From the NCBI RefSeq assembly GCF_003334405.1, contig NZ_QOWM01000016.1: a stretch of 64,000 bases of DNA, one strand, 5' to 3'. This document shows positions 8,912-63,799 of this stretch, in pieces. Position numbers and translations under genes: made by a program. The DNA comes from Escherichia coli. Lineage in GTDB: Bacteria; Pseudomonadota; Gammaproteobacteria; Enterobacterales; Enterobacteriaceae. Below the pieces are notes generated by a model. It had not been told where the DNA came from and made no database searches. It saw nothing but the letters and a program-made list of their open reading frames with translations. Every line of letters begins with the position of its first letter. Position 1 is the stretch's first letter.

Positions 8912-8992
8912 GTAGGCCTGATAAGACGCTATCAGCGTCGCATCAGGCATCCTGCTCAAATGCCGGATGCGGCGTAAACGCCTTATCCTGCC
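8912..8992. repeat. REP/BIME between convergent yiiM and cpxA
   Basis: GTAGGCCTGATAAGACGCTATCAGCGTCGCATCAGGC and a degenerate GCCGGATGCGGCGTAAACGCCTTATCC palindrome. Confidence 0.8.
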
Positions 8993-9006: not shown

Positions 9007-10380
9007 TTAACTCCGCTTATACAGCGGCAACCAAATCACCAGCCGTAAACCGCCCAGCGGGCTGTCTTCTGCCTTCACCCAGCCACGATGCTGCTGAATG
9101 GCGGTTTCAACAATCGCCAGCCCCAAACCTGTACCGCCAGATTCACGATCGCGTGCTTCATCGGTACGATAGAACGGACGGAAAATCTGTTCGCGATCTT
9201 CCGGGCTAACGCCAGGACCATCGTCGTCCACCGTAATGGTGATACCGTCTTTATCTACCGCAAAGCCCACTTCAATCTTCGTATGGGAATAACGCAGAGC
9301 ATTACGAACAATGTTTTCCAGCGCACTTTCCAGGGCGTTCGGATTGCCGTACAGCGGCCACGGCCCAGGCGGGAAGTTAACTGTCAACGACTTGCCCATT
9401 TGCTCGGCTTCGAACGCCGCGTTATCCAGCACTTCACTCCACAACTGGTTGGCTTTGATGGTTTCGCTAACCAGCGCGTTTTTTTGCTGATTACGTGACA
9501 TCACCAACAGATCGTTGATCATGCTGTCCAGACGTTGCGCTTCGGTTTCAATACGCTCCAGTTCCTTGCTTTCACCGCTACGACGGCGCAGTAACGCCGT
9601 ACCCAGTTGCAGACGCGTCAGCGGGGTGCGCAGCTCGTGAGAGATATCAGAAAGCAGACGCTGCTGAGAGGTCATCATGCGCTCCAGCGCGGTGACCATC
9701 TGGTTAAAACTGGCACCTGCGGCAAGGAATTCCTGTGGCCCCGCTTCCAGTTCCGGGTGCTGGCGTAAGTTTCCCTGGGCAACTTCATCGGCAGCGTTTT
9801 TCAGCTTACGCGCCGGTTTTGCCAGACTCCAGGCCAACCACAACAGCAGCGGCGTACTGACCAACATGGTGACAATCAGCAGTAATAGCGGGCGGTCAAA
9901 CAGTAAGTTAATGAAATCGGATTGAGAACTGCTGGCCGGACGAATCAGATAAAGTTGGTAATTATCTTCGCCATCACGCACGGAGAACGGACCGACCAGT
10001 TCCACGCGGCCATACTTTTTCTTCTGCGGATGATCGGCGTTATCGGCCTGACCAATAAAGTTACGAATGATCTGCATTTCGCTGCGTTCAGCGCCGATCA
10101 CGCGGCCTTCGGTGGTCACCAATAACAAACGCTGTCCTGGCGGTGCCCACTTATCAATCGCCCGGAACAGACGCCGCCACCACATTAAATCGTTGGGCGG
10201 ATCGTTCGCCAGCTCCGCTTCGACATGCTGCTCAATCATCAGCCCCTGACGCTGTTCGCTATCCAGAAGCTCGGTCATCTGGCGTGAATCGAGCTTGGGT
10301 AACATCAAAACCAACATCAACACCAGCGCCAGCGTCAGCCAGAAGATGGCGAAGATGCGCGCGGTTAAGCTGCCTATCAT
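9007..10380 (-). CDS. cpxA: envelope-stress sensor histidine kinase
   Basis: 457-aa ORF, MIGSLTARIFAIFWLTLALVLMLVLMLPKLDSRQ...; H-box SDISHELRTPLTRL; 4-bp ATGA overlap with cpxR. Confidence 0.95.
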   Translation of the reverse strand: MIGSLTARIFAIFWLTLALVLMLVLMLPKLDSRQMTELLDSEQRQGLMIEQHVEAELANDPPNDLMWWRRLFRAIDKWAPPGQRLLLVTTEGRVIGAERSEMQIIRNFIGQADNADHPQKKKYGRVELVGPFSVRDGEDNYQLYLIRPASSSQSDFINLLFDRPLLLLIVTMLVSTPLLLWLAWSLAKPARKLKNAADEVAQGNLRQHPELEAGPQEFLAAGASFNQMVTALERMMTSQQRLLSDISHELRTPLTRLQLGTALLRRRSGESKELERIETEAQRLDSMINDLLVMSRNQQKNALVSETIKANQLWSEVLDNAAFEAEQMGKSLTVNFPPGPWPLYGNPNALESALENIVRNALRYSHTKIEVGFAVDKDGITITVDDDGPGVSPEDREQIFRPFYRTDEARDRESGGTGLGLAIVETAIQQHRGWVKAEDSPLGGLRLVIWLPLYKRS

Positions 10381-11075
10381 GAAGCAGAAACCATCAGATA
10401 GCCGCGACCACGCAAGGTTTTAAACCACGGGTGACCATCTTTACGATCCGGCAGTTTACGACGCAGGTTGGAAATGTGCATATCAATAGCGCGGTCGAAA
10501 GGCGTCAGGCGTTTGCCCAACACTTCCTGGCTTAAATGTTCACGGGAAACCACCTGACCCAGATGCTGTGCCAGCAAATAGAGCAGGGTAAACTCAGTAC
10601 CGGTTAACTCCAGCGTTTGCCCGTCGAAGCTGGCTTCCTGACGGCCTGGATTCAGCACTAAGGCATCAACTTCCAGTGTCGGTGAACCGTTGTCGTTGTT
10701 TTGCTGTTGCTCGCTCCAGTGCGAACGGCGCAGGATCGCGCGAATACGTGCCACCAGCTCACGATCATTAAACGGTTTCGGGAGATAGTCATCTGCGCCC
10801 AGCTCAAGGCCGAGAACGCGATCAAGTTCACTGCCGCGCGCCGTCAACATAATGACAGGCGTCTGGTGTGTCTGGCGAAGTGCTTTTAATGTGTCGATAC
10901 CATTTTTCTTCGGCATCATTACGTCAAGCAAAAGTAAATCAATGCTGTCGTCCAGAAGATCAAGCGCCTGTTCCCCATCGTGGGCAACAATCACGTTGAA
11001 GCCTTCCATCTCGAGCAGCTCCTTTAATAGGGAAGTCAGCTCTCGGTCATCATCAACTAACAGGATTTTATTCAT
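10377..11075 (-). CDS. cpxR: envelope-stress response regulator (OmpR family)
   Basis: 232-aa ORF, MNKILLVDDDRELTSLLKELLEMEGFNVIVAHDGEQALDLL... Confidence 0.95.
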   Translation of the reverse strand: MNKILLVDDDRELTSLLKELLEMEGFNVIVAHDGEQALDLLDDSIDLLLLDVMMPKKNGIDTLKALRQTHQTPVIMLTARGSELDRVLGLELGADDYLPKPFNDRELVARIRAILRRSHWSEQQQNNDNGSPTLEVDALVLNPGRQEASFDGQTLELTGTEFTLLYLLAQHLGQVVSREHLSQEVLGKRLTPFDRAIDMHISNLRRKLPDRKDGHPWFKTLRGRGYLMVSAS

Positions 11076-11130
11076 TGTTTAAATACCTCCGAGGCAGAAA
11101 TTACGTCATCAGACGTCGCTAATCCATGAC

Positions 11131-11145
11131 TTTACGTTGTTTTAC
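11131..11145. promoter_or_regulatory. CpxR box (GTAAA-N5-GTAAA, here as TTTAC-GTTGT-TTTAC) in the cpxRA / cpxP divergent region
   Basis: Exact tandem pentamer with 5-bp spacer between divergent cpxR and cpxP; matches the published CpxR-P consensus as recalled. Confidence 0.75.
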
Positions 11146-11224
11146 ACCCCCTGACGCATGTTTGCAGCCTGAATCGTAAACTCTCTATCGTTGAATCGCG
11201 ACAGAAAGATTTTGGGAGCAAATG

Positions 11225-11725
11225 ATGCGCATAGTTACCGCTGCCGTCATGGCCTCAACGCTGGCAGTCAGTTCATTAAGCCACGCTGCTGAAGTCGGTT
11301 CAGGCGATAACTGGCATCCGGGTGAAGAACTTACGCAGCGCAGTACGCAGAGCCATATGTTCGACGGCATAAGTTTAACCGAACATCAGCGTCAGCAGAT
11401 GCGAGATCTTATGCAACAGGCCCGGCACGAACAGCCTCCTGTTAATGTTAGCGAACTGGAGACAATGCATCGCCTTGTCACCGCAGAAAATTTTGATGAA
11501 AACGCTGTGCGCGCACAGGCAGAAAAAATGGCGAATGAGCAAATTGCTCGTCAGGTTGAGATGGCAAAAGTCCGCAACCAAATGTATCGCCTGTTAACGC
11601 CGGAGCAGCAAGCGGTTTTAAACGAGAAACATCAACAACGAATGGAGCAGTTGCGTGACGTGACGCAATGGCAAAAAAGTTCATCGTTGAAGCTATTGAG
11701 TAGTAGCAACTCACGTTCCCAGTAG
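11225..11725 (+). CDS. cpxP: periplasmic Cpx pathway inhibitor/adaptor
   Basis: Track ORF 11222..11725 trimmed to [33 protein letters not shown] (166 aa); signal peptide, two LTxxQ motifs. Confidence 0.93.
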
Positions 11726-11734
11726 TAAACCCTG

Positions 11735-11792
11735 TTTTCCTTGCCATAGACACCATCCCTGTCTTCCCCCACATGCTGTGGGGGTTTTTTTT
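11735..11792 (+). ncRNA. cpxQ: CpxQ-like 3'-UTR-derived sRNA (cpxP 3' UTR plus terminator)
   Basis: About 58 nt from just after the cpxP stop to the terminator CCCCCACA-TGC-TGTGGGGG-TTTTTTTT (11766..11792); matches my recollection of CpxQ; the 5' end is processing-defined and approximate. Confidence 0.5.
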
Positions 11793-11873
11793 ATCCTCAA
11801 TTTGCCTGCTGCTTAATGCATTGCAGATGATTTGCTTCCGTTATACTAGCGTCAGTTGATAGCGGGAGTATTT

Positions 11874-12776
11874 ATGAATCAATCTTATGGACGGCTGGTC
11901 AGTCGGGCGGCGATTGCTGCGACGGCGATGGCTTCGCTGCTATTGCTGATTAAAATTTTTGCATGGTGGTATACCGGGTCGGTGAGTATTCTCGCCGCGC
12001 TGGTGGATTCGCTGGTGGATATCGGCGCGTCGTTGACGAATTTATTGGTGGTGCGATATTCCCTGCAACCTGCCGACGATAATCACTCGTTTGGTCACGG
12101 TAAAGCTGAGTCCCTCGCGGCGCTGGCGCAAAGTATGTTTATCTCCGGTTCGGCACTATTCCTGTTTTTGACGGGTATTCAACATCTGATATCTCCAACA
12201 CCGATGACAGATCCAGGCGTCGGGGTTATCGTGACAATTGTGGCGCTAATTTGTACGATTATCCTTGTCTCGTTTCAGCGTTGGGTGGTGCGGCGGACGC
12301 AAAGCCAGGCGGTGCGGGCTGATATGCTACATTACCAGTCTGATGTTATGATGAACGGCGCAATTCTGCTGGCGCTGGGGTTGTCCTGGTACGGCTGGCA
12401 TCGCGCCGATGCTCTGTTTGCATTGGGAATCGGCATCTATATTTTATATAGCGCGTTACGCATGGGATATGAGGCGGTACAGTCATTACTGGATCGCGCA
12501 TTGCCTGATGAGGAACGGCAAGAAATTATTGATATCGTGACTTCCTGGCCGGGTGTTAGCGGCGCTCACGATCTTCGCACGCGGCAGTCAGGGCCGACCC
12601 GCTTTATTCAGATTCATTTGGAAATGGAAGACTCTCTGCCTTTGGTTCAGGCACATATGGTGGCGGATCAGGTAGAGCAGGCTATTTTACGGCGTTTTCC
12701 GGGATCGGATGTAATTATCCATCAGGACCCCTGTTCCGTCGTACCCAGGGAGGGTAAACGGTCTATGCTTTCATAA
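11874..12776 (+). CDS. fieF: cation-diffusion-facilitator Fe/Zn efflux transporter
   Basis: Track ORF 11856..12776 trimmed to [35 protein letters not shown] (300 aa). Confidence 0.9.
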
Positions 12777-13976: not shown

Positions 13977-14074
13977 CCTGATGCGCTTCGCTTATCAGGC
14001 CTACATGAATTCTGCAATTTATTGAATTTGCAAACTTTTGTAGGCCGGATAAGGCGTTCGCGCCGCATCCGGCA
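13977..14074. repeat. REP/BIME between pfkA and sbp
   Basis: GCCTGATGCGCTTCGCTTATCAGGCCTAC and GTAGGCCGGATAAGGCGTTCGCGCCGCATCCGGCA; spurious ORF 13959..14156 lies inside. Confidence 0.85.
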
Positions 14075-27161: not shown

Positions 27162-27692
27162 TTACGCTTTGTAGCTTAATTCTTCGATGGTGTGGAAATG
27201 GTTGGTATAGATGCAAATGTCGCCTGCAATATCCAACGCCTTTTCAGCAATTTCACGGGCGCTAAGTTCAGTGTTTTCTAACAGCGCGCGCGCCGCAGCC
27301 TGGGCGTAAGGGCCGCCGGAGCCGATAGCAATAAGATCGTTTTCTGGCTGCACCACGTCACCGTTACCGGTGATGATAAGCGATGCAGTTTCATCCGCGA
27401 CTGCCAGCAGTGCTTCAAGTTTGCGCAGCATGCGATCGGTACGCCAGTCTTTTGCCAGCTCAACGGCGGCTTTGACCAGATGGCCCTGATGCATTTCCAG
27501 TTTACGTTCAAACAGTTCGAACAGCGTAAAAGCATCCGCAGTACCGCCCGCAAAGCCCGCGATGACTTTGTCGTTGTACAGACGGCGGACCTTTTTCACG
27601 TTGCCTTTCATTACGGTATTGCCCAACGTGGCCTGACCATCACCAGCGATGACCACATGGCCGTTACGGCGTACGCTTACTATAGTTGTCAC
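27162..27692 (-). CDS. hslV: ATP-dependent protease subunit HslV
   Basis: 176-aa [42 protein letters not shown]...; N-terminal Thr nucleophile after Met removal. Confidence 0.96.
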
Positions 27693-27751
27693 GAGCTGAC
27701 CCCTTGGTTACGAATACAGAGTACAAACCCCGTACAAAAGTACGGGGCATA

Positions 27752-63683: not shown

Positions 63684-63799
63684 AAAAAAAGCGGATCCTG
63701 GAGATCCGCAAAAGTTCACGTTGGCTTTAGTTATTCGAGTTGAGAAACTCTCGAAACGGGCAGTGACTTCAAGGGTTAAAAGAGGTGCCGCTCCGTTTC
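63684..63799 (-). ncRNA. oxyS: OxyS oxidative-stress small RNA
   Basis: The minus strand reads GAAACGGAGCGGCACCTCTTTTAACCCTTGAAGTCACTGCCCGTTTCGAGAGTTTCTCAACTCGAATAACTAAAGCCAACGTGAACTTTTGCGGATCTCCAGGATCCGCTTTTTTTT, matching the OxyS sequence as I recall it, including the terminal hairpin GCGGATCTCCAGGATCCGC plus U-tract; divergent from oxyR. The 3' end is approximate. Confidence 0.85.

Follow-up and report, generated by a model that had tools for sequence, protein, structure and literature searches.

CpxQ was discovered in Salmonella as an Hfq-bound 3' fragment of the cpxP mRNA; an RNase E cut near the stop codon frees the RNA, with Hfq making cleavage more precise and shielding the released RNA (review, PMC9438474). 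The described targets, all repressed by CpxQ, are nhaB, skp, agp, ydjN, fimA, and cfa (PMC9438474). On Northern blots of E. coli RNA, longer cpxP-derived transcripts are processed to the 58-nt CpxQ (PMC6755755), and in rne-3071 at the non-permissive temperature the processed CpxQ falls while its precursors rise (bioRxiv 10.1101/341578). In E. coli, CpxQ reduces Skp and has a protective effect on the inner membrane; it has also been reported to lower CpxP levels (PMC4817254). The pairing with cfa involves C11 of CpxQ and G-135 of cfa, with the C11G mutant losing cfa repression and the compensatory cfa G135C change restoring it partly (PMC6755755). The pairing with nhaB in E. coli lies ~300 nt into the coding sequence and includes a G312:U7 wobble, the site found in the translation-initiation region of Salmonella nhaB being reported as not conserved in E. 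coli (PMC10250213). An Hfq CLIP peak on the cpxP 3' UTR has been described in Yersinia pestis (PMC6635623).

Several other small RNAs (sRNAs), namely SroC, SdhX, NarS, and processed MicL, resemble CpxQ in that they are freed from an mRNA 3' end near the stop codon by RNase E processing, share the terminator of the parental gene, bind Hfq, and act in trans (PMC9438474; 10.1101/341578); they differ from it in their parental genes and have unrelated sequences and targets. A further related RNA is Hrs1 of Erwinia amylovora (Rfam family RF02628), which is encoded co-directionally between cpxP and fieF, depends on Hfq, and ends at a Rho-independent terminator (PMC4070566). As defined, Hrs1 is 74 nt long and starts upstream of the CpxQ 5' end, and its source paper calls it Erwinia-specific (PMC4070566). 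No paper linking the names Hrs1 and CpxQ was found in the literature searched.

Position and identity of the element

The DNA analysed here (the window) is a 64-kb stretch from E. coli, in which cpxP is flanked by the divergent cpxRA genes upstream and by fieF downstream, the latter starting 81 nt past the element under study and on the same strand (Table 1). The sequence from 11700 to 11830 is 100% identical to that of E. coli K-12 MG1655, whose curated RefSeq annotation carries an ncRNA gene cpxQ (b4716, 'small regulatory RNA CpxQ') at NC_000913.3 4106330–4106387; these coordinates correspond exactly to positions 11735–11792 of the window. The annotated 5' end (UUUUCC) begins 9 nt past the cpxP stop codon, so that the element lies within the cpxP 3' UTR, on the cpxP strand, and ends at the cpxP terminator. 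Since both the coordinates and the sequence are exactly those of RefSeq cpxQ, the element is almost certainly CpxQ itself, the Hfq-dependent sRNA derived from the cpxP 3' UTR. In comparison with the CpxQ described in Salmonella enterica and E. coli (Chao & Vogel 2016; Grabowicz et al. 2016), the locus, strand, length, seed, and terminator are shared, the targets would be the same, and 57 of the 58 nucleotides are identical to the Salmonella RNA, the only difference being the loop base at 11776 (C here, A in Salmonella and most E. coli).

A preliminary description of this DNA, made from the letters alone, had matched the region to CpxQ and had proposed alignment with the published sequence as a check; that alignment, at 100% identity to MG1655 cpxQ, bears the match out. 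It had also placed roughly 58 nt between the cpxP stop codon and the terminator. The length of 58 nt is correct for the element as a whole; the terminator is included in it, however, and the distance from the stop codon to the stem is only 40 nt.

Table 1. Features of the cpxP–cpxQ–fieF region (window coordinates, unless a locus is named) and the basis of their assignment.
Feature	Positions	Strand	Basis or remarks
cpxA	9007–10380	-	
cpxR	10377–11075	-	
cpxP, coding sequence of the parental mRNA	11225–11725	+	ORF list; RefSeq annotation of the identical MG1655; Pfam LTXXQ on homologues
AGUA/GUAG-rich tract	11699–11729	+	AGTAGTAGCAAC at 11699–11710, AGTAGTAAA at 11721–11729; just upstream of the processing site
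cpxP stop codon TAG	11723–11725	+	second in-frame stop, TAA, at 11726–11728
Processing site	11734–11735	+	between CCCUG and UUUUCC; 5' end from RefSeq cpxQ, RNase E dependence from the literature
Mature CpxQ sRNA, 58 nt	11735–11792	+	identical to cpxQ b4716
Invariant 5' part with the target-pairing seed (UUUUCCUUGCCAUAGACACCAUCCCUGUCUU)	11735–11765	+	31 of 31 columns invariant in 81 species
SL1, predicted small hairpin	11748–11764	+	AGACA/UGUCU, 7-nt loop; in the MFE and centroid folds
Rho-independent terminator hairpin	11766–11784	+	8 bp, loop UGC at 11774–11776; terminator scan and covariation
U8 tail, 3' end of the transcript	11785–11792	+	sequence; expected Hfq proximal-face binding site
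fieF	from 11874	+	
AGUA/GUAG tract in other loci	L082 1418–1500; L093 1726–1784; L094 634–692; spacers of L095 and L096		

Terminator and predicted fold

The 3' half of the element is a GC-rich hairpin followed by exactly eight T, in agreement with the strong terminator, C-rich stem, and 8 T of the preliminary description. The stem is formed by CCCCCACA (11766–11773) and TGTGGGGG (11777–11784) around the loop TGC, its 3' arm also being given as UGUGGGGG in the pairing over 11766–11784; the terminator scan counts 8 pairs, 6 of which are G–C, with a loop of 3 nt. This hairpin and its U tail correspond to the module expected for Hfq binding, and a tail of 7–9 U is kept in all homologues. The terminator-like pattern by itself is within chance, with 3 occurrences in 1.2 kb against 1.2 ± 1.2 expected.

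The 58-nt RNA has a predicted folding energy of −17.4 kcal/mol (z = −2.8; 1 of 200 shuffled sequences was as stable) and folds into a weak 5-bp hairpin and the terminator. A stable fold is likewise predicted for the minus strand (−19.2 kcal/mol, z = −3.2), so that folding has no power to tell the strands apart. All five pairs of the small 5' hairpin (SL1) are invariant in the Enterobacteriaceae alignment and hence give no covariation support, and in the most diverged homologue (L096) a G-to-A change disrupts one of them; for these two reasons SL1 is kept as a prediction only. In the predicted fold of the 3' end of the precursor (both MFE and centroid), GGCAA within cpxP (11670–11674) pairs with UUGCC of the CpxQ seed (11741–11745). 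This pairing may have arisen by chance, or it could mask the seed before processing.

Conservation in Enterobacteriaceae

To the window sequence we aligned the cpxP loci of 80 species-level Enterobacteriaceae genomes, whose CpxP proteins are 71–100% identical, giving 81 species in total. The 5' part of CpxQ is invariant throughout its length (Table 1), whereas the cpxP coding sequence has 165 invariant columns out of 498, with no invariant run longer than 5 nt, and only 14 of the 166 third codon positions are invariant. None of the 58 nt past the U tail is an invariant column. Conservation reaches 75% at the third codon positions of cpxP and 51% in the downstream spacer. Compared with the window, CpxQ has a median nucleotide identity of 98%, the coding sequence one of 80%, and the spacer to fieF one of 50%. 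The 3' UTR, with its invariant 5' seed, is thus more conserved than the coding sequence that precedes it; within cpxP itself, conservation is lowest over the final 75 nt.

The terminator stem varies in a different manner, by compensatory changes that yield the arms CCCCCACA/UGUGGGGG, CCCCCUCA/UGAGGGGG, CCCCUCC/GGAGGGG, and CCCCGCC/GGCGGGG. In the stem columns, 96% of the cells are paired and 15 are double-change cells; none of 500 shuffles gave as many. As judged from the alignment, the 31-nt conservation combined with the compensatory changes of the stem is far beyond chance.

Within E. coli, the seed core is present as a single copy in 5424 of the 5426 complete genomes, which are all the genomes that have it, and is 100% identical in 5419. 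Paralogous copies of CpxQ in E. coli are ruled out by this strict single-copy occurrence. Megablast searches returned additional places in E. coli genomes, 165 with a 75-nt query (11726–11800) and 837 with an 801-nt query (11100–11900); because the seed core is strictly single-copy, these stem from elsewhere in the queries, such as the terminator or its 3' flank.

The loop base at 11776 (nucleotide 42 of CpxQ) is C in the window, the minority allele in E. coli. With the 75-nt query, 894 of 5425 E. coli genomes were identical to the window and 4522 others differed at one base. A is found at this position in E. coli H6, in Salmonella, and in at least 90% of the 81 aligned species. No consequence is expected from this change of a terminator-loop base.

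In the otherwise poorly conserved spacer between cpxP and fieF, a hexamer TATACT is located at 11842–11847, ~27 nt upstream of the fieF start, and recurs as CGCTATACT in the spacer of many genera. It is probably the −10 element of fieF.

Distant loci

A more distant set was assembled from CpxP representatives 36–62% identical (representatives at 50% identity) and the contigs encoding them, and a Proteus mirabilis chromosome found in the plasmid collection was added. The core UUUCCUUGCCAUAGACACCAUCCCUGUCUU, with a hairpin and a U tail downstream of it, was found after cpxP in all cpxRA–cpxP loci with a CpxP of at least ~42% identity. Depending on the locus, 7 to 81 nt lie between the stop codon and the core, and the gene that comes next also changes: it is fieF, pfkA (L096), a convergent gene (Proteus), or unrelated genes (L094). 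In Proteus, the terminator has an unrelated sequence (GCCCCUCU/AGAGGGGC), whereas the upstream core is identical. Because the element persists despite these changes in spacing and in downstream gene, it travels with cpxP and not with the neighbouring gene.

A covariance model (R1), trained solely on the Enterobacteriaceae alignment with the window sequence included, gave one match in the 64-kb window, at 11735–11792 on the plus strand (89.9 bits, for a sequence contained in the training set). The same model recovered every one of the distant copies, with homologues after cpxP in 8 distant loci outside the training set, Proteus among them, at scores of 45.6–91.2 bits; it found no match after the cpxP of 36% CpxP identity. 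With the distant terminators, which were out of register under MAFFT, aligned to the model instead, compensatory changes are seen in 4 of the 8 stem pairs among the distant loci. Selection acts on the single-stranded 5' part as sequence and on the hairpin as structure, a pattern expected of an sRNA that works by base pairing and carries an Hfq/terminator module, rather than of a mere terminator.

Copies of CpxQ on plasmids or other mobile elements were also considered and rejected, as the matches in PLSDB are pieces of chromosome labelled as plasmids, with sodA–cpxAR–cpxP–fieF–pfkA synteny. Such mislabelled records include NZ_CP039131.1 (L083), NZ_LN868945.1 (L099), and NZ_OL790812.1 (L082), which are chromosome fragments or whole chromosomes. 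One PLSDB record, designated 'Pseudomonas sp. A2', is a 51-kb linear sequence with the enterobacterial synteny sodA–cpxAR–cpxP–fieF–pfkA–hslUV.

Processing site and the upstream AGUA/GUAG tract

The annotated 5' end of CpxQ has U at positions +1 to +4 of the cleavage site, as preferred by RNase E. The consensus for RNase E has a purine at −2; this position is a U here, which counts against the site. A simple scan limited to sigma-70-like promoters found no promoter-like site on the plus strand between 10900 and 11735. This result and the low conservation of the last 75 nt of cpxP fit processing of the cpxP mRNA rather than separate transcription.

Just upstream of the processing site, the window has a tract rich in AGUA and GUAG (Table 1), and similar tracts were found in other loci. 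In the 60 nt upstream of CpxQ at 16 loci, AGTA, GTAG, and TAGT are enriched 21-fold, 20-fold, and 15-fold, respectively, over the flanks. The tract encodes the CpxP tail in E. coli; in Proteus and other distant loci it is a non-coding spacer that does not align with that of E. coli. A test for tandem ARN triplets in the tract was marginal. Conceivably, though with a low probability in our estimation, the tract is a conserved biogenesis element, for example an (ARN)n-like site for the distal face of Hfq that positions the RNase E cut; possible alternatives are a set of stops covering every reading frame, a mere side effect of Ser and stop codons, or the relic of a Ser-rich tail.

Pairing with targets

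Nucleotides 4–11 of CpxQ are complementary to GGCAAGG located ~135 nt upstream of the cfa start codon, and the duplex energy is reached by only 1 of 500 shuffled seeds. In nhaB, the segment from +296 to +314 pairs with nucleotides 4–18 of CpxQ, including the U7:G wobble, at −17 kcal/mol; other windows of nhaB score about equally. For skp and the 5' region of cpxP, the predicted duplexes with CpxQ were no better than those with shuffled seeds. Because the nhaB site is not unique in energy and the skp and cpxP 5' duplexes do not exceed the shuffled controls, the pairing evidence obtained here is consistent with the published targets and is not independent proof of them.

Rfam matches and annotation

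At the gathering threshold, Rfam release 15 gives no match at the CpxQ site, and it contains no CpxQ family. The best sub-threshold match is to RF02628 (Hrs1), spanning 11720–11792 on the minus strand with 41.4 bits, below the gathering score of 56.4. Two distant loci do pass the threshold of this family (L090 1711–1784, 74.7 bits; L091 1705–1778, 64.6 bits), again on the strand opposite to cpxP. In the RF02628 consensus a run of seven A comes first, along with a GC stem, as in a terminator read backwards, and its reverse complement carries the CpxQ core CCUUGCCA...AUCCCUGUCU. Since the matches lie opposite to cpxP while the source paper describes co-orientation with cpxP and a terminator, Hrs1 is, going by its consensus, evidently the Erwinia homologue of CpxQ, with its model stored as the reverse complement. 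The absence of a match at the CpxQ site is accordingly due to the absence of a correctly oriented family. Among the E. coli records inspected, a cpxQ feature is present only in the curated MG1655 record, and none of the PGAP-annotated records listed has one, an omission that is probably due to the same lack of a correctly oriented Rfam family.

Elsewhere in the 64-kb window, the Rfam matches at the gathering threshold are the OxyS sRNA, the ClpQY (hslVU) promoter element, the L31 ribosomal-protein leader, and the REP-derived naRNA4 and ES036, all of them known (63690–63799, minus strand; 27690–27747, minus; 32359–32411, plus; 8915–8992, minus; 1–70, plus; 13997–14038, minus; and 33391–33432, plus).

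Alternative explanations

The hairpin with its U8 tail is a textbook terminator, and termination is needed in any case between cpxP and fieF on the same strand; the region could accordingly be a bare intrinsic terminator of cpxP, with the RNA upstream of the hairpin being functionless. Against this reading, which we regard as very improbable, the 31 nt preceding the stem are dispensable for termination and yet invariant in 81 species, while the stem itself varies freely by compensatory change. In Proteus, moreover, an entirely different terminator follows an identical core, and published seed mutants lose regulation (PMC6755755). The proximity of fieF, beginning 81 nt downstream on the same strand, also allows the element to be viewed as a cis-acting leader or attenuator governing read-through into fieF. 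This is similarly improbable, as the element stays with cpxP where the downstream gene is another one (pfkA in L096, a convergent gene in Proteus, and unrelated genes in L094), and the spacer to fieF is only ~50% conserved.

The remaining alternatives concern the origin and the strand of the RNA. Some 3'-UTR sRNAs are transcribed from a promoter of their own within the upstream gene, as stated in the introduction of 10.1101/341578, and CpxQ could be of this MicL type instead of a processing product, all the more as our scan covered sigma-70-like promoters only. It is nevertheless highly unlikely: no promoter-like site was seen on the plus strand over 10900–11735, the last 75 nt of cpxP are its least conserved part, where a conserved promoter would not be expected, the 58-nt form arises by processing of longer plasmid-borne transcripts (PMC6755755), and the CpxQ product drops in rne-3071 (10.1101/341578). 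A functional RNA on the minus strand is suggested by the orientation of the best Rfam match (41.4 bits, E = 1e-6) and by the stable fold of that strand described above. However, the hairpin folds equally on either strand, and on the minus strand it is preceded by a run of A, so that it makes no terminator there; the source paper of Hrs1 describes the cpxP/fieF orientation and a Rho-independent terminator (PMC4070566), and the curated annotation and all the experiments refer to the plus strand. A minus-strand RNA is thus improbable in the extreme, and the plus-strand, processed CpxQ remains our reading of the element.

Proposed mechanism and significance

The identity, position, strand, terminator, conservation, stem covariation, and complementarity to cfa and nhaB described above come from the present analysis, and the RNase E cleavage, Hfq binding, and target regulation are based on the literature. 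In the proposed sequence of events, CpxR-P would switch on the cpxP promoter, and the cpxP transcript would stop at the intrinsic terminator (hairpin 11766–11784 and U8). RNase E, whose involvement is known from the literature, would then cleave ~9 nt past the stop codon, between CCCUG and UUUUCC, releasing a stable RNA of 58 nt that carries a 5' monophosphate. Hfq would hold this RNA through the terminator hairpin and the U tail, as also reported in the literature, leaving the invariant single-stranded 5' portion to pair with mRNAs such as nhaB, skp, and cfa, which would be repressed, again according to the literature, by a translation block or by promotion of RNase E decay. One transcript would in this way give rise to the periplasmic CpxP protein and to an RNA that regulates the envelope stress response from the cytoplasm. 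The dual function that the preliminary description attributed to the cpxP mRNA agrees with the published production of CpxP protein and CpxQ sRNA from one transcript (PMC4817254; PMC9438474).

CpxQ is already known and is annotated at these exact coordinates, and its assignment here adds nothing to the biology. It forms the non-coding side of the Cpx envelope stress response and is the standard example of an sRNA cut from an mRNA 3' end. Its correct recognition matters for annotation; automatic pipelines miss it in the E. coli records inspected.
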